DNA of 64,000 bases from a virus. Below are positions 2,488 through 63,233 of this stretch, piece after piece (within the stretch, counting starts at the first letter, position 1; every line of letters starts with the position of its first letter). A program made the position numbers and the translations under genes. Below the pieces are notes generated by a model. The model had not been told where the DNA came from. It ran no database searches and was given only the letters and a program-made list of their open reading frames with translations. The DNA lies in the IMG/VR virus record IMGVR_UViG_3300035682_000025, positions 8,042 through 72,041 of that record, one strand, 5' to 3'.

Positions 2488-3243
2488 ATGAAATATCATA
2501 GAGATCAATATCTATTATTTGTATATCAAGTAATTGCCCACATTGGACTATTGCTATTACTATTTTATGGAACATGGTTACAATTACTGATATCTTTTAC
2601 GATTTATTATGTTTTAGGTACGGTAGGTGCAAGTATGACTTATCACAGATTACTCACTCATAGGTCATACACTCCGCCTAGATGGTTTGAACTACTAGGT
2701 AGTGTTGTTGGTGCATTATGTTTGATAGGAAGTCCTGTTAGTTGGGTTGCCATGCACAAACAGCACCATAGATACAGCGATCAGGAGCTGGACCCGCACA
2801 GTCCAGTTCATCACAGTTTTATTCATGTGATGTGCTTTGAAATGTTTAGTGAAGTTAATTTACGTTACGCTGCAAGTATGCTACGAGATCCAATTCAATT
2901 GTTTCTACACAAATACTACTTCTTAATACACGCTTCTATTTTTACAACATTAATAGTCGTCAATCCTTGGAGTGTAGTTTACTTATATCTAGCACCTGTT
3001 GCATTTGTTTGGACATTAGGAAACTGCGTCAATTATTTTAATCATACATCAGGGTATAGAAATCACGAAACAAAAGACAACAGCAGGAACAATCCAATAC
3101 TCGCTATACTATTTGGCGGAGAAGGATGGCATAACAATCACCACGCTAATCCTGCTAAATATTATTATGGCGAGAAGTGGTGGGAATTTGATCTAGCTGG
3201 TTTCCTGATTAAAACATTTTTAGATCGTCGGATAGATGAATAG
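2488..3243 (+). CDS. Membrane fatty-acid desaturase, delta-9 acyl-CoA/acyl-lipid type
   Basis: Three canonical His boxes (HRLLTH, HKQHH, HNNHH) spaced as in stearoyl-CoA/DesC desaturases. Four hydrophobic segments are present. RBS-like gagaac upstream. Confidence 0.75.
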   Translation: MKYHRDQYLLFVYQVIAHIGLLLLLFYGTWLQLLISFTIYYVLGTVGASMTYHRLLTHRSYTPPRWFELLGSVVGALCLIGSPVSWVAMHKQHHRYSDQELDPHSPVHHSFIHVMCFEMFSEVNLRYAASMLRDPIQLFLHKYYFLIHASIFTTLIVVNPWSVVYLYLAPVAFVWTLGNCVNYFNHTSGYRNHETKDNSRNNPILAILFGGEGWHNNHHANPAKYYYGEKWWEFDLAGFLIKTFLDRRIDE

Positions 3244-29686: not shown

Positions 29687-29765
29687 ATAAATAGAAGTGT
29701 CAATCGCGGTAGTGCAAATACCCACTGACTCTAGAACTTGTCACCTAAAAGAAGGAGCTCCAGCA
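29687..29765 (+). promoter_or_regulatory. HEG-associated late promoter plus conserved leader (copy B)
   Basis: GATAAATAGAAGTGTCAATCGCGG...CTCTAGAACT...AAGGAGCTCCAGCAATG. Conserved with copies A and C. Confidence 0.6.
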
Positions 29766-30710
29766 ATGGATATTTATCCGATTCTAGCATCAAAGCCTCA
29801 TAGCGAACATCATCTCAATAGATATATCAGGTTTATTGAGCAATGTCAACAGAATAACAAAAAGTCTTCCATAAAAACACATAGGCATCATATTTGCCCA
29901 AGAGCAAAAGATATGTTTCCAGAATATGAGTCGTTCGCCAAGAACAAATGGAATATGGCACGACTGACGCCACGACAGCATTTCATCGCCCACATAATGT
30001 TGTGGAAAGTATATCCAAACATTTCTTCGCAGTTCAATGCTGTTTGGCAAATGAAACACAGAAATAACGAACAAATGAATTCGCGACTATATGAAAGCGT
30101 TCTATTAGAGCATAGCAGAGTAACCTCAGCTAGACTAAAAAATACGGTTTCTGTATATGATGCAAATGGTTTATTTCATCGTATTCCAGTAAGTGAATAT
30201 GACGAAAGTAAGCATACACCCATTTCTGCAAATAGAGTAGTAGCAAAAATGGATAGCGGTGATTATGTTGTGGTTTCTGTAGATGAGTTTCGTTCTAGAA
30301 CTGATTTACACGGAACAACAAAAAATACGAAAGCATGGAATGATGGAAATACTGTTATGTATTCTTACAAAAATCCTGGCCCTGGTTTTACGAGGGGTCA
30401 TTTACCCCTCTCGGATGAGCAGAAGAAAATTCGTAATGAAAAGACTCGACAGACTATATCAAAAAGAACATCAGAAGAAAATAAACTAATCAGTATAAAG
30501 AGCTCTCAAGCTAAAAGAGAGTATTATGCCAATCTCTCACCAGAAGAAAGAAAAAAGCCGCAAGAGTTCAAAGACAAGTTGTCGGAAATCAGGAAAGAAA
30601 GCAATCCGGGTTTCAGAGCAACTCACGCCTGCCCTACTTGCGGCAAAGAAGGTCAGAAAGCTAATATTTCAAAGCATCACGGTCTCAATGGCGAAAAGTG
30701 TAGATGGTAG
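29766..30710 (+). CDS. HNH homing endonuclease (free-standing, Mob-like)
   Basis: HHICPRA ... NMARLTPRQHFIAHIMLW HNH motif. Lys/Glu-rich C-terminal DNA-binding tail with CPTCG. Antisense to the surrounding operon. ATG 29766 with RBS AAGGAG. Confidence 0.8.
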   Translation: MDIYPILASKPHSEHHLNRYIRFIEQCQQNNKKSSIKTHRHHICPRAKDMFPEYESFAKNKWNMARLTPRQHFIAHIMLWKVYPNISSQFNAVWQMKHRNNEQMNSRLYESVLLEHSRVTSARLKNTVSVYDANGLFHRIPVSEYDESKHTPISANRVVAKMDSGDYVVVSVDEFRSRTDLHGTTKNTKAWNDGNTVMYSYKNPGPGFTRGHLPLSDEQKKIRNEKTRQTISKRTSEENKLISIKSSQAKREYYANLSPEERKKPQEFKDKLSEIRKESNPGFRATHACPTCGKEGQKANISKHHGLNGEKCRW

Positions 30711-38448: not shown

Positions 38449-38828
38449 TAACCTGCCACCTTATATGCTACGATATCCCATCGATTCATTGGGTCGCTTG
38501 CGCTACGATGTCTCCAAGTAATCTGTGGCCAGTGTTTAGCAGCGATAGGAGAACGAGGAATTCTGCCGCGCACTTTGACAGCAACAACAGTTTCGCCATC
38601 AACGGGACGGTCTCCGCCTTCCCATATAATGAAACCATCCCCATCAATTGCAACACTTTCAGAGCAAAGATTGCCAGATGGGTTCTTTGCTGGCTGATAA
38701 TCATTCTCTACAATTGTCAATGCGTTTCTGGCTCGTTCCCTGCACCAATGCCCGCCGCGTTCTTCGCCCCAGCTTGCAATTTCTTGTAAAGCATTCTGTA
38801 GTGATTCATGGGTTTTCATATCAATCAC
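38448..38828 (-). CDS. Hypothetical protein
   Basis: 126 aa. Confidence 0.4.
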   Translation of the reverse strand: MIDMKTHESLQNALQEIASWGEERGGHWCRERARNALTIVENDYQPAKNPSGNLCSESVAIDGDGFIIWEGGDRPVDGETVVAVKVRGRIPRSPIAAKHWPQITWRHRSASDPMNRWDIVAYKVAG

Positions 38829-39963
38829 CGCCTTTCAGCAAAAACGAGTTGGAAATTGTCTTGAAGCTGAAACTCGGGTCTTCATTGCACTTCCACACAA
38901 GACCTTCACGGATTTTGTGATTGATGCTCGGACCTTCTGCAAGAGCAAGACCTTCTTCAACACTGTTGGGTGCTTTCCAGTTAGAGCCGTGTAGTGGAAC
39001 ATGCTCAAGACCAAGCAACTGACAATTTACGCGACGGTCGCCCGGAGAGACATACTCGTGCTTCTGAATGTCGAACATATCGAAGACAAAGAAACGGTGT
39101 TCTTTGAACCCTTCACGGTTACCCTGAATCGACGGGCCGCACACTTCCCCCTGAAATGCATATCCATCTGGAATTTTATCACCAATCTTGAGAGCCATAG
39201 CAACAAAGGTATTGTCCTTGTTCTCGTCATTGATTTTCAGTTCAAGGTTCCGGCTTGCAACACGAAGTTCACCTTCCCATCGGAAGATAGTGCAGCTAGA
39301 ACCGTCCAGCTTCAGAGTGACTTCGTAGGTTGGCTCTTGGAAGTCAGCAGGAAGAACTACTGGCCGTTGATCAAGGCGTTGAAGCTCAGCATCCCAAACA
39401 GTTTCAGTTGCAAGTCGCTTGGCTTTCTTTTGAATATCGCCAAAGCAGTTTTGAATGCGCTCTTGATCGGTCTTCGGGATCAGCGATGTTGGGAAAGTAC
39501 CTTTTGCTTGACCTTGCAATTGCGCAGGAAGAGGTGCTTCCCACTTTTGAATGTTGAGGAATTCGGTCAGGTCAGTACCTTCTTTGATTTCAGGTCGCTC
39601 TGGTAGATTTACAGGAATGTCACCACCGTCACTGTTACACCAAATATTGATATAATCTTCTGCAACGCAAATTGGCAGCAAAAGCCCCTGAGAAACCTGC
39701 CCCCTAAGTTTGATTGTCCGCAGACGTTCACCCTTCACACCATTGTATTCGCGGGGTTCATTTCCTTTGCTCAAGAATGCTGCGAGTTCATGCGGAACCC
39801 AAGAGTCAATTTCGAGGTATACAGCAAGGTCGTTCACAGCGAATTCGCCGCGCTTTACGACGACCTTCCATCCGTCAATAGTAGCCACTTCGACGGCATC
39901 AGCACCTTCGATGGGTCGAATGTCGGCAATGCGCCGAATAGAAGCAAGTTTACGCTCAGTCAT
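38821..39963 (-). CDS. ATP-dependent RNA ligase-like nucleotidyltransferase with N-terminal putative tRNA-binding OB-fold domain
   Basis: Motif I KLDGSS (Rnl1-like KxDGS), motif IV-like EGLVWK, C-terminal K-rich motif V. The N-terminal 60 aa (IRRIADIRPIEGADAVEVATIDGWKVVV) resemble the Trbp111/EMAP-type tRNA-binding domain. Confidence 0.55.
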   Translation of the reverse strand: MTERKLASIRRIADIRPIEGADAVEVATIDGWKVVVKRGEFAVNDLAVYLEIDSWVPHELAAFLSKGNEPREYNGVKGERLRTIKLRGQVSQGLLLPICVAEDYINIWCNSDGGDIPVNLPERPEIKEGTDLTEFLNIQKWEAPLPAQLQGQAKGTFPTSLIPKTDQERIQNCFGDIQKKAKRLATETVWDAELQRLDQRPVVLPADFQEPTYEVTLKLDGSSCTIFRWEGELRVASRNLELKINDENKDNTFVAMALKIGDKIPDGYAFQGEVCGPSIQGNREGFKEHRFFVFDMFDIQKHEYVSPGDRRVNCQLLGLEHVPLHGSNWKAPNSVEEGLALAEGPSINHKIREGLVWKCNEDPSFSFKTISNSFLLKGGD

Positions 39964-40431: not shown

Positions 40432-40460
40432 ACCATAGGCGATTCTCTAGTATTTGTCAA
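40432..40460 (-). promoter_or_regulatory. Early promoter P9 (TTGACA-N17-TATGGT)
   Basis: Reverse complement reads TTGACAaatactagagaatcgccTATGGT. Confidence 0.5.
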
Positions 40461-40496: not shown

Positions 40497-40700
40497 TCAT
40501 TTCCCTTCACATCGAACAAATGTAAGAGTTTCTGGGTCAATTCGTGGGGCCATCATTTGAAAATATGTATCTTCTCCATCGACCCAATATGCAACACCAT
40601 CCAAACATACTGTAATCATATCACTGGTTTGATCGGTATTGTTTTTTTCTTCACATCCTGCAAGAGATAGAAGTACAGCGGCAATAACAAGATATTTCAT
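40497..40700 (-). CDS. Small lipoprotein
   Basis: Signal peptide with lipobox LLSLAGC. 67 aa. ATGA-coupled to the upstream ORF. Confidence 0.55.
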   Translation of the reverse strand: MKYLVIAAVLLSLAGCEEKNNTDQTSDMITVCLDGVAYWVDGEDTYFQMMAPRIDPETLTFVRCEGK

Positions 40701-40876
40701 TGAGCTCGCTCCATTTGGATTTCTTTGATGACTTCAATCATCTGATTTTCATCAGCTTCAGCAAATTCATCTACATAAGCTTGAATTTCCCAAGCAAGTT
40801 CTTGGGCATCCCAATTCCATACTGGTTGCCCATTATCAGCAGTAGTCTGCATCAGTTCAAGCAATTGCTCTTTCAT
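40697..40876 (-). CDS. Small acidic cytoplasmic protein (59 aa), not in track
   Basis: MKEQLLELMQTTADNGQPVWNWDAQELAWEIQAYVDEFAEADENQMIEVIKEIQMERAQ. ATGA overlaps at both ends link it to the two lipoprotein genes. Confidence 0.45.
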   Translation of the reverse strand: MKEQLLELMQTTADNGQPVWNWDAQELAWEIQAYVDEFAEADENQMIEVIKEIQMERAQ

Positions 40877-41229
40877 TTCATTTCCTCAGTAGCATCAGGA
40901 ATAGTATATTCTACGCCGATTCTACGGCTAATGTCAATCACATACTGCTCACGAGATTCCCTGACTGCTTCGCGAATGCCTTCACTGACTTCATTAGCAA
41001 GCTCTCGCGGAACTAATGGGCGATTGCTATCAAAGCATCTACGGCCGAGGCATGGCTCATCGAACCAAACAGGATACCCATTCTTCAAGATAGTTACACC
41101 ATCTTGACTGAGTGTGTACCCCTTCTCTTCCATGTAAGGGTTTAGCTCAGGAGGCCAGACTGCTGGACTTGGCTCGATATTACACGCAGCAACGAAAAGG
41201 ATGGTGCATAGAAGGAGTGATTTTCTCAT
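40873..41229 (-). CDS. Lipoprotein
   Basis: Signal peptide with lipobox LFVAAC. 118 aa. Confidence 0.55.
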   Translation of the reverse strand: MRKSLLLCTILFVAACNIEPSPAVWPPELNPYMEEKGYTLSQDGVTILKNGYPVWFDEPCLGRRCFDSNRPLVPRELANEVSEGIREAVRESREQYVIDISRRIGVEYTIPDATEEMK

Positions 41230-41435
41230 TCCGCATCGCCTCCCGTTAGCACATTACTGGGGTGAATGGACCGCTCCGATTCATCATCCCATCGGACACG
41301 AAGAATGGCTTCTAAACCATTGCTGGAAAATCCGATTACATGACCAAACATGGGTCGTGCTTCTAGTCCTCTATATATACCACCATGAGAACCATCTTTC
41401 TCGCGAACAACAGTTCCAATCTTGTATTTCCACAT
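41226..41435 (-). CDS. Hypothetical protein
   Basis: 69 aa, ATGA-coupled. Confidence 0.4.
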   Translation of the reverse strand: MWKYKIGTVVREKDGSHGGIYRGLEARPMFGHVIGFSSNGLEAILRVRWDDESERSIHPSNVLTGGDAE

Positions 41436-41968: not shown

Positions 41969-41997
41969 AATCTACACCGATTCGATGCTCGTGTCAA
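41969..41997 (-). promoter_or_regulatory. Conserved early promoter P10
   Basis: Reverse complement reads TTGACAcgagcatcgaatcggtgTAGATT. Confidence 0.6.
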
Positions 41998-42249: not shown

Positions 42250-43371
42250 CTATGCCTCCAACCAGTTCATCATTGCTTCATACTTCGGACCGTTACCGAC
42301 GGAATCCTTGATCTTCTTGATAACGAGAGGGCGAAGTTCCTTGCCATCAAGAGCCGAGAAGATGAAAGAAGCATCTTCCTTGTTGATCAGATTCGGGACG
42401 AAGTTGATAGCAACATCCTTCTTCACTCCACCATGCAGGACACGAGCAAGAGTAACCAACCCCTCCAGCCGCCCAAGAGCGTTCTCCAGCGCAGCGTCAA
42501 AGCGGCGTTCATAAGCACGAACGGTTGCCAGGTCAGTCGCATCAAGCAACGGGAGAACATCATCCAGCTGCTCGTTGATGATAATGTCAGCGATGTTTCG
42601 GTCAGAGCGAACCAAGTCTTTGGTTTTATGAATACGGACATACCAGTCGTTCTTGATCTTCAACATGTGGCCATCAGCGAACCGAATGATATCACCTTCA
42701 CGGCCAGACATCTCGCGAGCACGAGCAATGTATTCCGACAGACCACCCTCTACAGAACCATACTGCTGAACAACCTCGAAAGGAGCCGAGTGTGGCATAT
42801 AGTAGTTGCCAGTGAAGTTGTTGCGCATGGCCAGAAGAACGAGCTTCGGCTCAGCATACTCAATCACGATTTTGTTGGTCGGAGCAATATATTCAAAGAT
42901 AGGAGTTACATCGGAAAGCACCAGCTGCTCAAGCCACTCGTATTGTTCAGCAGTAAGCAGTTTTTCAGCTTCAATAGCGATGTCAGTCACGCCCATCTTG
43001 GTTGCAAGACGAACCATTCCGTTCAGGCAAATCGGCCGGATCATCGACCCATCCATCTTTTCCATGATGACATGGGGCTTGGTCATATCAATTGCATGAA
43101 TTTGCGTTTCTTCTTTTTCAAGGGCATTGAAAAATTTGTGGAAGGGGCGCGACATGATATAGCCCTCAAGGTCAAAGATCAAGCCGCGGCATTCACGCCG
43201 AATAGCACCACCAAGGTCATCCGGGCCAGTCATATCAAAGGTATCAGCCATCGCAACAACATAGTTGATAACAGTACCAAACTCGCGCTCAGCAACAATA
43301 AATTCGGAGCGACCTTCAATGTGAGGAAGCACATCGTTGATGGTGCGGATTTCAGGGAATTGATAGTTCAT
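42250..43371 (-). CDS. rnlA: RNA ligase 1 (T4 RnlA homolog)
   Basis: ECRGLIFD, motif I EKMDGSM, FEYIAPTNKIV, EGDIIRFADGHMLKIKNDWYVRIH all match T4 Rnl1. 373 aa. Confidence 0.85.
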   Translation of the reverse strand: MNYQFPEIRTINDVLPHIEGRSEFIVAEREFGTVINYVVAMADTFDMTGPDDLGGAIRRECRGLIFDLEGYIMSRPFHKFFNALEKEETQIHAIDMTKPHVIMEKMDGSMIRPICLNGMVRLATKMGVTDIAIEAEKLLTAEQYEWLEQLVLSDVTPIFEYIAPTNKIVIEYAEPKLVLLAMRNNFTGNYYMPHSAPFEVVQQYGSVEGGLSEYIARAREMSGREGDIIRFADGHMLKIKNDWYVRIHKTKDLVRSDRNIADIIINEQLDDVLPLLDATDLATVRAYERRFDAALENALGRLEGLVTLARVLHGGVKKDVAINFVPNLINKEDASFIFSALDGKELRPLVIKKIKDSVGNGPKYEAMMNWLEA

Positions 43372-44037: not shown

Positions 44038-44089
44038 TCCTTCTTTACCTTACAGAATCAACATACATCGATTCGAATGCTATGTCAAC
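44038..44089. repeat. 52-bp duplicated promoter/5-prime-UTR cassette, copy 2
   Basis: tccttctttaccttacagaatcaacatacatcgattcgaatgctatgtcaac versus copy 1 ...cgcattctatg... Confidence 0.85.
44060..44088 (-). promoter_or_regulatory. Early promoter P12 (copy 2 of duplicated cassette)
   Basis: Reverse complement reads TTGACAtagcattcgaatcgatgTATGTT. Confidence 0.55.
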
Positions 44090-47156: not shown

Positions 47157-48020
47157 TTACTGGTTGACTCCGCCCATATTCATGAATGGAACAGTTTGAC
47201 CGGGAATCATAGTGGTTGGAAGAGCACCGTTCCAGCGTTCAGCCTGCACAAGATCAATGAGCGCCGGGTTGTCACGAAGCGCATCTCCACGAGCACGAAT
47301 GGCACTTGCTTCTGCATCACCAGTCAATGTGATTGCTTCTGCCTCTGCGGTCGCCTGAGCAACACGAGCATCAGCTTCTGCTTGTGCCTGAATCACTTTG
47401 ATTTCGGCCTGAACTTTTTCCCGCTCAGCATTTTGTCGAACTTTCTGAACTTCAACTTCGGCAAGCATTCTTGCTTCAATTGAATTTTCATATGCATCAG
47501 AGAAGTCGATGTTTTCAATCTGAACGGATTCTACAATGATGGGGCCAACAACAGCCTTTTGGATTGCCATCTGGACTTCTGCTGCAAGCCGTTCGCGTTC
47601 CTGAATTGCTGTTGCAGCATTGAATTTACCAAAGACATTTTTTACTTCTTCAAGAACTTGTCGGTCAAGAAGACGAGAGACAACGCCAGCCTCACCACCA
47701 TATTCGCGATAGATAGTCTCAACTTGATCAGCGGGCAGACGATAGTTTACAGACATATTCAGACCTGCTGTCTGTTGGTCCCGCGAATAAGCAAGAATAT
47801 TTTCATACATCTGAGCCTGTGACTGCACAGAAATATCAACAACAGAATCAACGATTGGTAGTTTGAAACCAAGACCCGGTTCAGCTGTTCCGATCACAGC
47901 ACCATTCCGTAGTGCAACACCACGATACCCTTCGTTTACGGTATACCATGACCCACCAAGAATAGTTAGCGCGACAATACCAACAACGACGGCACCACCA
48001 ATTCCAACAACTACATTCAT
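47157..48020 (-). CDS. SPFH/band-7 (prohibitin/HflKC-like) membrane protein
   Basis: N-terminal TM anchor, SPFH domain, Ala/Glu/Gln-rich coiled-coil tail. Start re-assigned to the ATG at 48020 (MNVVVGIGG), RBS GAAAGGAAG. Confidence 0.75.
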   Translation of the reverse strand: MNVVVGIGGAVVVGIVALTILGGSWYTVNEGYRGVALRNGAVIGTAEPGLGFKLPIVDSVVDISVQSQAQMYENILAYSRDQQTAGLNMSVNYRLPADQVETIYREYGGEAGVVSRLLDRQVLEEVKNVFGKFNAATAIQERERLAAEVQMAIQKAVVGPIIVESVQIENIDFSDAYENSIEARMLAEVEVQKVRQNAEREKVQAEIKVIQAQAEADARVAQATAEAEAITLTGDAEASAIRARGDALRDNPALIDLVQAERWNGALPTTMIPGQTVPFMNMGGVNQ

Positions 48021-48102
48021 AACTTTCTTCCTTTCATAATTTTTATATTCGTTCATATCGTTTTGATAATCGAGACTATTTCTATAGTTGGTTCGATCTG
48101 GT

Positions 48103-48288
48103 TTACGCATCTTCATCATCCTCTAGGTCAACAACCTTTGTGATTTCATTTCCGTTTTCGTCTTTTGTCTTGACATAGCGGTACCTACCAGTAGTTCGCT
48201 TGAATGTCAAGTTTTTCATAATCACAAAAGCACCAACTCCAATGAGTGCTGCAATGATGATAATTCCGACAAGTGATAGTGGCATCAT
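48103..48288 (-). CDS. Small single-TM membrane protein (possible SPFH partner)
   Basis: 61 aa, N-terminal TM helix and acidic C-terminus, immediately upstream of the SPFH gene. Confidence 0.45.
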   Translation of the reverse strand: MMPLSLVGIIIIAALIGVGAFVIMKNLTFKRTTGRYRYVKTKDENGNEITKVVDLEDDEDA

Positions 48289-49448: not shown

Positions 49449-49655
49449 CTATTCGAATGTACATTTGCCGCTAAGTGTGATTTCGCCTTTTTGTGCAATA
49501 CATGCTTTCTCTACCTCAGCGTGAGCATTCACCCTTTGCCGACTATCTTCAACAGTACAGTATGCGAGTGGCACTGCCAGTAGAGCAAGTGCCAGTATAG
49601 TTTTCCATTCCATGTTTATTCTCCTATCAAATGTTGCTGAACAGGTCAGCTGCAA
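49449..49655 (-). CDS. Small secreted/lipoprotein-like protein
   Basis: Signal-peptide-like ILALALLAVPLAYC. Likely start is the internal ATG (MEWKTIL). Confidence 0.4.
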   Translation of the reverse strand: MQLTCSATFDRRINMEWKTILALALLAVPLAYCTVEDSRQRVNAHAEVEKACIAQKGEITLSGKCTFE

Positions 49656-62267: not shown

Positions 62268-63233
62268 ATGGCTATTTATCAACCGTATTTCTACATCATC
62301 CAAGATAAGCGCAACGGCATCTACTATGCCGGCGTCAAATGGGGGAAAGATGCAAACCCATCTACTTTTATGGCAGAAGGTGGCTACACGACTTCATCAA
62401 ATACAATCAACGACCTCATTAGACAGTATGACTTGAGCACCTTTATCATCCGCAAGATCAGAACTTTTGAAACTGCTGAAGAAGCTCAAGATTACGAAAC
62501 CAGGTTTCTTCAAAAGGTGGATGCCAAGAATCATCCAAGATTCTATAATGGCCACAATAACGATTGGATTCTATCCCCGAAAAAACTAAAACTTCTTATG
62601 ATAGAAAGGTATGGGGTCTCATATGCGTTACAAAATAACGAAACGAGAGAAAAAAGGTTTAATACCATTGAAGAAAGATATGGCGTAAGACATCCAATTC
62701 AGTCTGATATCATCAAGAGTAAAATGACCAATACCATGCGCGAAAGATATGAAGTGAGCTGGGCTTCACAGTGTCAAGAAATCAGAAATAAAATGACCGA
62801 AACTACAAAAGAGAGATATGGCGTAGAGTATCCAGCACAATCTATAGAAATTAGAAACAAAATGAAAAAAACAAACCTAGAAATAAGAGGCGTTGAATAC
62901 CCAACACAATCAGAAGAAGTTATGAATAAACTAAGAGAAACCAATTTTGAAAAATATGGTGTGGGAAATGTATTTCAAGCAGATGAAATAAAAGAAAAAA
63001 TAAGAAACAAAAATCTAGAAACTATGGGAGTCGAAAACCCATTCCAATCAGAAGAAATAAAAAGTAATATACGAGCTATAATGACTGCTAGGCACAATCG
63101 AGTGGAAGTTCAAGAAATAAAAAAATATGTAAAAAAGTTCAAGATAAAACTCCAAAGAAGCTGGAACAAAAAGCCTGATGAGTTTATTCAAAACCTACTT
63201 AGTAACCTAAAAAAAGAATACGGCGAAATATAA
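62268..63233 (+). CDS. GIY-YIG homing endonuclease with tandem ERYGVxYPxQSxEI repeats
   Basis: N-terminal YFYIIQDKRNGIYYAGVKWG GIY-YIG motif. At least seven repeats of about 20 aa ([EK][RK]YGV[EN].P.QS.EI.NK). Confidence 0.7.
   Translation: MAIYQPYFYIIQDKRNGIYYAGVKWGKDANPSTFMAEGGYTTSSNTINDLIRQYDLSTFIIRKIRTFETAEEAQDYETRFLQKVDAKNHPRFYNGHNNDWILSPKKLKLLMIERYGVSYALQNNETREKRFNTIEERYGVRHPIQSDIIKSKMTNTMRERYEVSWASQCQEIRNKMTETTKERYGVEYPAQSIEIRNKMKKTNLEIRGVEYPTQSEEVMNKLRETNFEKYGVGNVFQADEIKEKIRNKNLETMGVENPFQSEEIKSNIRAIMTARHNRVEVQEIKKYVKKFKIKLQRSWNKKPDEFIQNLLSNLKKEYGEI

Follow-up and report, generated by a model that had tools for sequence, protein, structure and literature searches.

Small proteins that phages export are known to provide mechanisms of exclusion and host takeover. 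Three small early proteins of phage T4, Imm, Spackle (Sp), and RI, protect the infected cell or sense superinfection; they act at the inner membrane or beyond it, and their genes lie in variable small-gene regions. Of these, Imm is a polytopic membrane protein, and helical structures are found in Spackle and in the periplasmic domain of RI. The spanin genes of T4 map beside rnlA, alc, and pseT. To our knowledge, very few small exported proteins have been characterised in T4-like phages outside Escherichia coli. Among the closest described systems is Llp of phage T5, a small lipoprotein that is able on its own to block a receptor and that acts from the inner leaflet of the outer membrane (PMC9586334). 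Another is the spanin pair of T4, a 117-aa i-spanin (PseT.3) and a two-Cys lipoprotein o-spanin (PseT.2), encoded away from the holin and endolysin genes (PMC6139136). How do these systems compare with a trio of small genes at positions 40497 to 41229 of a 64-kb stretch of viral DNA (IMG/VR record IMGVR_UViG_3300035682_000025; the whole stretch is called the window below)? The trio encodes two predicted lipoproteins and, between them, an acidic protein, and was originally predicted to be a functionally coupled envelope module. Our analysis indicates that it probably consists of three unrelated small accessory genes that have come to lie side by side by chance, independent early genes of which two are exported.

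The genes are named g118, g59, and g67 after their products of 118, 59, and 67 aa, and all positions are those of the 64-kb window. They are arranged head to tail on the minus strand. The first, g118 (41229..40873), encodes a predicted lipoprotein, identified by its open reading frame (ORF), lipobox signal, and homologues. It is followed by g59 (40876..40697), an ORF with homologues whose acidic product has no signal peptide, and by g67 (40700..40497), which encodes a second predicted lipoprotein with a lipobox signal and a family of relatives. The original prediction had described these three minus-strand ORFs, their linkage by ATGA start/stop overlaps (at 40873-40876 and 40697-40700), the two lipoproteins, and the acidic cytoplasmic protein, and on each of these points it was borne out: by sequence criteria, both g118 and g67 carry a lipobox and a signal of the signal peptidase II type, and g59 has a net charge of -11.5 and no hydrophobic segment. 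Shine-Dalgarno-like motifs (GGGAGG, GAGGA, and GGAG) are found 7-11 nucleotides 5' of the three starts. The prediction overlooked a fourth gene, g69 (41435..41226, minus strand), which encodes a 69-aa protein without a signal peptide and whose stop overlaps the start of g118 by the same type of ATGA junction. For g118, the ratio of non-synonymous to synonymous divergence (dN/dS) is 0.14 against the orthologue in a related locus, L001; for g59 and g69, dS against the L001 orthologues is saturated and dN is 0.15-0.19. These values show purifying selection, and the ORFs are thus genuine coding genes.

Do the overlaps or the acidity of g59 set the trio apart? A crude gene call of the window gives 110 junctions between same-strand genes, and 22 of these (~20%) are 4-bp overlaps. 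The ATGA overlaps are therefore not peculiar to the trio; such coupling is a general gene-packing style of this genome. Acidity is likewise frequent among the small proteins of the window, so that it does not mark out g59: the 43 proteins shorter than 100 aa have a median isoelectric point (pI) of 4.86, and for 14 of them it lies below 4.5.

A more direct test of whether the trio forms a unit is its gene arrangement in relatives. Related loci were gathered through homologues of the three proteins, and the window genes were mapped onto them by tblastn. In the window, the trio lies between two RNA-ligase genes on the minus strand, an Rnl1-type gene (T4 gp63-like; 42250..43371) that forms the upstream boundary of a variable region and an Rnl2/PHA02142-type gene (38821..39963) that forms its downstream boundary. 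Nine arrangements were counted between or beside these ligase genes. The window shares the order g69-g118-g59-g67-g146 with L002 and L003, and L001 has g69-g118-g59-g67. In L005, g59-g67 is preceded by tm56, a gene for a 56-aa transmembrane (TM) protein. The order is g69-g67-g146-g59 in L006 to L011 and g67-137aa-g59 in L012. The remaining loci lack both partners of g67: 93aa-g67 in L030, tm56-g67-58aa in L032 and L033, g69-86aa-g67 in L034, and p139-g67 in L035 and L036. Thus, g67 is present in 9/9 arrangements, g59 in 5/9, and g118 in 2/9, and both order and adjacency vary. In L035 and L036, sequence identity is 88% for g67 and 84% for the flanking ligase, but g118 and g59 are both absent. 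Conversely, a 56%-identical homologue of g118 is found in L037/L038 without g59, g67, g69, or a ligase gene within 5 kb; L038 is a different phage contig of 203 kb, and its g118 copy keeps the lipobox and both Cys residues. In a given phage, g69 or g67 tends to overlap whichever gene adjoins it, and in other relatives g69 overlaps g67 directly. The variable arrangements, together with the lone copies of g67 and of g118, indicate that the trio is a lineage-specific juxtaposition and not a conserved functional unit. Within it, g67 is the conserved resident of the inter-ligase locus, and g118 and g59 are lineage-restricted additions.

These data bear directly on the proposal that two lipoproteins and an acidic cytoplasmic partner form one translationally coupled module that jointly excludes superinfecting phage. 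In its favour, the three genes are contiguous and ATGA-linked, g118 and g67 are the only lipobox genes of the window, the arrangement is kept in L001 at ~85% identity, and the transcription context looks early. However, g67 persists where its partners are missing (g118 in seven of the nine arrangements, g59 in four), both partners are absent from L035/L036 at 88% identity in g67, the gene order is reversed and interrupted in L006-L012, and g118 stands alone in L037/L038. Moreover, 4-bp overlaps are the genomic norm, and a cytoplasmic protein cannot contact lipoproteins that have no TM segment. The joint module is very unlikely on this evidence. The original prediction of functional coupling is not supported, because the genes travel independently, their overlaps are those of the genome at large, and the two lipoproteins are unrelated; the search for the trio as a conserved gene neighbourhood, which the prediction had suggested as a check, went against it, with g118 in 2/9 and g59 in 5/9 arrangements and the order variable.

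Some neighbours of the trio genes in these loci deserve mention. The g69 protein is 60-81% identical among relatives and gives a weak SH3-like hint in Pfam (E=0.028); depending on the phage, its gene is ATGA-coupled to g118 or to g67, or is followed by a short gap and then an unrelated 86-aa gene. The conserved 56-aa single-TM protein (L005 4834-5004 and L032 3834-4004, 71% identical between the two loci) is encoded directly 5' of g59 or g67 with an ATGA overlap, and its basic tail suggests an N-out/C-in topology. Two relatives, L005 (421-2364) and L012 (3895-5044), have the Rnl1 ligase gene divided into two pieces, with a reverse-strand 228-aa ORF (983-1669) between the pieces in L005; this suggests a mobile insertion or a split gene.

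What do the three proteins look like individually? Lipoprotein signals were recognised by a K/R-containing n-region, an uncharged hydrophobic core, and the lipobox [LVI][ASTVI][GAS]C with its Cys at ~15-35. The N-terminus of g118 is MRKSLLLCTILFVAAC followed by N, with the signal MRKSLLLCTILFVAA preceding C16; that of g67 is MKYLVIAAVLLSLAGC followed by E, with the signal MKYLVIAAVLLSLAG preceding C16. Both signals have K/R among the first three residues, an uncharged core of 10-12 residues, and [LV]-A-[GA]-C with the Cys at position 16, features of signal peptidase II lipoproteins that are kept in homologues. When this rule-based scan was applied to every ORF and start in the window, g118, g67, and one antisense artefact were the only matches.

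The mature part of g118 combines a linker rich in Pro with a conserved GYT..DGVTILKNGYPVW.DEPC-x4-C block and with a charged stretch at the C-terminus that appears helical by reading of the sequence. Its homologues are four close copies, all of which (4/4) retain the lipobox Cys, and the 56%-identical copy in L037/L038, in which the lipobox Cys is retained as well; Cys60/Cys65 are conserved. No match to g118 was found in Pfam, PHROG, NCBIfam, or the PDB, and tblastn of the mature protein against isolate phages gave nothing at E<=1. A resemblance of its CxxxxC element to the loop of Ivy-like lysozyme inhibitors was considered; there is no Pfam Ivy match, and the idea is unsupported speculation. 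The g59 protein has a pI of ~4.05 and invariant Trp19, Trp21, and Trp28. All of its 23 homologues belong to the same phage clade; tblastn against isolate phages at E<=1 and searches of Pfam, PHROG, NCBIfam, and the PDB found no match. Sequence-profile searches of the PDB with g118, g59, and g67 returned nothing at E<0.2, and the Pfam, PHROG, and NCBIfam scans of the trio and of the g67 family gave only signal-peptide-level or sub-threshold matches. A g67-like domain within g118, suggested by an hhalign probability of 89.6%, was rejected, since the match was driven by the signal peptide and a domain-only hidden Markov model (HMM) of g67 gave none. Compared without their signal peptides, the sequences of g118 and g67 are unrelated. 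The second lipoprotein, g118, is narrow in distribution and unrelated to g67, and g59 is one among many small acidic early proteins.

The mature form of g67, with 52 aa, comprises a linker and a β mini-domain in which Cys32, Tyr38, and Cys64 are invariant. A search of 1.84 billion cluster representatives with a profile built from 13 close homologues retrieved 136 proteins at E<=1e-3, of which 131 are small (51-152 aa). A lipobox anchors 99 of these small members (76%) and an N-terminal TM segment 24 (18%); the linker between anchor and domain has a median length of 20 residues (range 12-53), and the domain cysteines are a median of 31 residues apart. The three residues named above, C32, Y38, and C64, are invariant in an alignment of 113 sequences. 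The AlphaFold2 model built on that alignment, with a predicted local distance difference test score (pLDDT) of 86.6, shows a signal helix followed by a three-stranded antiparallel sheet. The family can be defined by a lipobox or TM anchor, a linker, and then the pattern C-[LI]-x-G-[VI]-x-Y-[WY] ... [AS]-[PV]-[RK]-[IV]-[DN]-x-x-T-[LM]-x(4)-C within a protein of ~58-95 aa; g67 both seeds this definition and conforms to it, and the domain-only HMM matches ORF278 of phage nt-1 at 2e-15.

Is this family already known under another name? No Pfam domain covers the mini-domain (the lipid-attachment motif LPAM_1 is found in 8/113 members), and no NCBIfam model matches. The PHROG entry phrog_7772, whose function is not annotated, is matched by 24/113 members (best 4.9e-8), although the match of g67 spans only positions 1-40 of the 139-position profile. 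The top BFVD match is a 66-aa 'Lipoprotein' of Vibrio phage VspSw_1 (34% identity), and structure searches of the PDB and BFVD returned only such unannotated phage 'lipoproteins', with no PDB match. Both phrog_7772 and the UniProt 'Lipoprotein' entries of VspSw_1 and similar phages, none of which has a function assigned, probably represent the g67 family. Members occur in large Vibrio phages, namely phiKT1024 (UOK16823.1), pv27, phiTY18, SRILMA, TDDLMA, F86, Va1, and the T4-like nt-1, and every named cluster member is annotated as a hypothetical protein. The nt-1 and phiKT1024 genes are placed between nrdD and nrdG or within a tRNA cluster. A tblastn search with a divergent member, P0115, found no match. 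A degenerate scan covering the CLDGV[EQ]YW-type motif only gave seven matches, all by chance, among one genome for each of 185,579 bacterial and archaeal species, and the same motif gave one chance match in IMG/VR beyond the loci already known. With chance matches only, the family looks phage-specific and not bacterial or common in prophages. Judged by sequence, g67 thus belongs to an extensive and so far nameless family, specific to phages, of periplasmic mini-domains tethered to a membrane. Distant members in two unrelated phage contigs (L013 5893-6117 and L014 5968-6192) show the mobility of the mini-domain; one, from a high-GC phage, is a lipoprotein whose gene adjoins ORFs for an AAA ATPase and a J-domain-like protein, and the other is TM-anchored.

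How might the genes of the trio act if they are independent? They sit in the variable ('hyperplastic') stretch between the two RNA-ligase genes, where host RNA polymerase, starting at sigma-70-like promoters, would probably produce an early g85b-g85a-g69-g118-g59-g67 message. A match to the sigma-70 consensus in the gap before g85b (TTGACA-17-TAGATT, 41969..41997, minus strand) is a candidate early promoter for this run. A second consensus match (TTGACA-18-TAGAAT, 11/12; 40908..40937, minus strand) lies inside g118 and ends 32 nucleotides before the start of g59. A third, TTGACA-17-TATGGT in the 96-nucleotide gap after g67 (40432..40460, minus strand), also a match to the consensus, marks the 3' limit of the unit running from g85b to g67 and the start of the g146/Rnl2 unit. 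The products of g118 and g67 are predicted to leave the cytoplasm through Sec, to acquire a lipid on Cys16, and to be processed by signal peptidase II, and would end up tethered to a membrane and facing the periplasm; g59 is predicted to remain cytoplasmic. In g67, a β mini-domain of ~40 residues, probably closed by a Cys32-Cys64 disulfide, would be held on a linker of 12-53 residues from a lipid anchor or a TM helix. The interchange of lipid and TM anchors within the family suggests that g67 acts in the periplasm and not strictly from the outer membrane, either close to the inner membrane or on a target that is soluble or exposed to the periplasm. The exported proteins would most likely serve to remodel or protect the infected-cell envelope early on, for example by excluding secondary phages, by making the cell immune to lysis from without, or by interfering with a host process in the periplasm. 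The three products would not need each other. Our best guess, which is drawn from localisation and analogy, is that each has its own early function in the envelope or in host takeover, which for g67 is most likely exclusion or immunity.

A narrower proposal makes g67 by itself, and perhaps also g118 independently of it, a protein of superinfection exclusion or immunity on the periplasmic side, directed against receptor function, DNA entry, or the cell-wall lysozyme of the incoming phage, and functionally analogous to T5 Llp, Cor, T4 Imm, or Spackle. We regard this as possible and put it forward tentatively. Both proteins are small, face the periplasm, and belong to a probable early unit, and the g67 family is confined to phages, mostly large virulent ones. 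Llp sets the precedent for a small phage lipoprotein acting in this way, and exclusion proteins are expressed early (PMC9586334). On the other hand, g67-family genes never adjoin a tail or receptor-binding gene in the loci examined, and the TM-anchored members are unable to reach an outer-membrane receptor as Llp does. Rather doubtful is the idea that the mini-domain of g67 represents a new phage-specific class of periplasmic effectors, with a β fold of ~40 residues that is probably disulfide-stapled and lipid- or TM-tethered, deployed early by large virulent phages to disable a periplasm-exposed host function. For instance, entry of a secondary phage genome might be blocked at the inner membrane by a mechanism different from those of Llp/Cor, Imm, or Spackle; in this lineage, g118 and g59 would then be add-ons to the same envelope programme.

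The topology of the proteins also invites comparison with the control of lysis in T4. Tethered periplasmic g67 or g118 might act with cytoplasmic g59 in lysis timing, like the antiholin RI and the co-antiholin RIII; alternatively, g67 might inhibit a periplasm-exposed host machine such as the divisome, for which SPO1 Gp56 is the comparison. A tethered periplasmic domain and a small cytoplasmic protein match RI and RIII in their topologies, the region looks early, and the interchange of TM and lipid anchors points to a target that is periplasmic or close to the inner membrane. Searches of PHROG, Pfam, and BFVD revealed no similarity to RI or RIII, though, and no holin was identified near the trio. 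In addition, g59 is missing from most g67-bearing loci, and the β domain of g67 is unlike the helical periplasmic domain of RI. This explanation is improbable.

Could g118 and g67 instead be non-canonical spanins? In this case g118 would be a lipoprotein i-spanin retained in the inner membrane and g67 the outer-membrane o-spanin, and their position near an rnlA homologue would mirror that of T4 pseT.3/pseT.2. The reading was taken seriously because of the rnlA-alc-pseT synteny of T4, whose spanin genes are likewise distant from the holin and endolysin genes; g118 has 118 aa, g67 has two periplasmic Cys residues, and the window contains no further lipoprotein. The spanin survey of Kongari et al. 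states explicitly that, in principle, a lipoprotein of the inner membrane could take the part of an i-spanin (PMC6139136). Nevertheless, the reading fails on several counts. The two genes are not co-inherited, with g67 occurring without g118 in seven of nine arrangements, and the cytoplasmic gene g59 lies between them. Phage nt-1 has canonical separated spanins, VPFG_00134/00135 (~104.9-105.6 kb), and its g67-family gene, VPFG_00061 at 174.3 kb, lies ~70 kb away. A TM anchor, present in 18% of the g67 family (24/131), is incompatible with an o-spanin, and g67 is a folded β domain with just two Pro residues. Within several kb, no gene encodes a membrane protein of type II topology with a coiled coil in the periplasm; the hydrophobic core of g118 has 12 residues and ends in the lipobox, and neither g69 nor g59 has a TM domain. 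A unimolecular spanin of the T1 gp11 type does not fit either, since g118 and g67 lack a C-terminal hydrophobic segment. Spanin PHROGs match neither g118 nor g59, and match 1/113 members of the g67 family (an Rz-like PHROG, 2.2e-4). We consider a spanin function extremely unlikely. The original prediction had also held that the genes are not a classical Rz/Rz1 pair and have no described counterpart, and here we agree: there is no TM i-spanin nearby and no spanin-family membership, and no homology of the three proteins to any described family was found.

The trio belongs to a large myovirus of the T4 type that metagenomes alone have revealed. At 4.5-15.3 kb, the window carries genes for a T4-like terminase, tail sheath, portal, scaffold, and major head protein, which are followed by a long minus-strand block of DNA-metabolism genes and small genes of no known function; this block surrounds the trio, which lies ~24 kb from the structural genes. 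A megablast search of the 6-kb region against 50,697 phage records gave no match; at the DNA level, no isolate phage is a near relative. Related metagenomic contigs reach 192-279 kb, and the relatives of 200-280 kb include Ga0643543_0000005 and IMGVR_UViG_3300047480_000545. Between 38000 and 44500 (minus strand), 17 sigma-70-like promoter matches were found against 9.7 expected, with perfect-TTGACA matches in the gaps at 44088, 43611, 41997, and 40460. By sequence, these matches are consistent with T4-style early promoters.

Some further genes of the window are worth noting. At 2488-3243 (plus strand), among the structural genes and just 5' of the terminase gene, lies an auxiliary gene whose 251-aa product, a membrane protein, contains a fatty-acid desaturase domain (PF00487, 4.7e-20) and could change the lipids of the host membrane. 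At 47157-48119 (minus strand) lies a gene for an SPFH/Band 7 membrane protein (PF01145, 1.3e-30), which is labelled 'lipoprotein' by PHROG 200 yet has an N-terminal TM segment and no lipobox; it overlaps a gene for a 61-aa single-TM protein (48103-48288, minus strand). A small Cys-rich ORF at 49449-49655 (minus strand) resembles a secreted protein when read from the internal Met15 (MEWKTILALALLAVPLAYC...) and has no family match. Homing-endonuclease genes (PHROG 655, 12131, and 3339) are present at 29697-30710 and 62268-63233 on the plus strand, the opposite strand to the long early block in which they lie. Finally, a PHROG batch scan of 16331-38828 (minus strand) found a further RNA-ligase-family match (phrog_755, 4e-24) besides the two flanking ligases, as well as PhoH, DprA-like, dCMP deaminase, and RuvC-like genes.

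Several points weigh against our preferred interpretation of chance neighbours with early envelope roles. First, g59 and g67 co-occur in five of the nine arrangements and are ATGA-coupled in three, which leaves room for a looser g59-g67 relationship within the clade. The trio has also stayed intact between lineages at a dS of ~0.67 (window against L001), and the two sole lipobox genes of 64 kb are only 177 bp apart, a spacing that by rough estimate has a chance of a few percent under random placement. The lipoprotein status of g118 and g67 follows from rule-based sequence criteria, and the promoter calls are consensus matches. The window represents only about a quarter of the genome. Lastly, the envelope-protection role is suggested by localisation and analogy, and no annotated homologue gives a function.

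What is gained by taking the trio apart? The three-part envelope machine as proposed is not upheld, which saves the effort that multimer modelling and triple-gene constructs would have cost. The useful remainder is g67 and its sizeable, unannotated, phage-only family of membrane-tethered periplasmic mini-proteins. Because members are present in cultured Vibrio phages (nt-1, phiKT1024, pv27, phiTY18, SRILMA, and TDDLMA), their function is directly testable in a tractable host.

The trio shares features with the described systems, yet it matches neither the spanins nor Llp/Cor. Like PseT.3/PseT.2 and the KVP40/nt-1 spanins, the genes lie near a gp63/RnlA homologue and away from any lysis cassette, and the sizes resemble those of the T4 pair (117-118 aa and a two-Cys lipoprotein), with lipoprotein signals in both (PMC6139136). 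In contrast to PseT.3, g118 has a lipobox and a 12-residue core in place of a TM domain of ~20 residues; a cytoplasmic gene separates the pair, which does not co-occur in relatives and has no spanin-family matches. The resemblance to T5 Llp and to Cor of T1, phi80, and N15 is that of small, periplasm-facing, early phage lipoproteins of ~60-80 aa. However, the match of g67 to the Cor PHROG (E=0.033) covers residues 1-21, the signal peptide only, and marginal matches to that PHROG occur in just 3/113 family members; nor did structure searches of the PDB and BFVD give a match to Llp or Cor. Whereas llp and cor adjoin a receptor-binding or tail-tip gene (pb5 and gpJ), g67-family genes are found elsewhere, and with 18% of its family anchored by a TM segment, g67 does not represent an obligate outer-membrane lipoprotein. 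Imm, Spackle, and RI are, like the trio's exported proteins, small early envelope proteins of a T4-like phage. They differ in that no homology to them was detected, in that g67 is a lipid- or TM-tethered β mini-domain, and in that g118 is a lipoprotein of mixed predicted structure. An early exported phage protein that protects the infected cell would be a plausible description of what the inter-ligase locus encodes.

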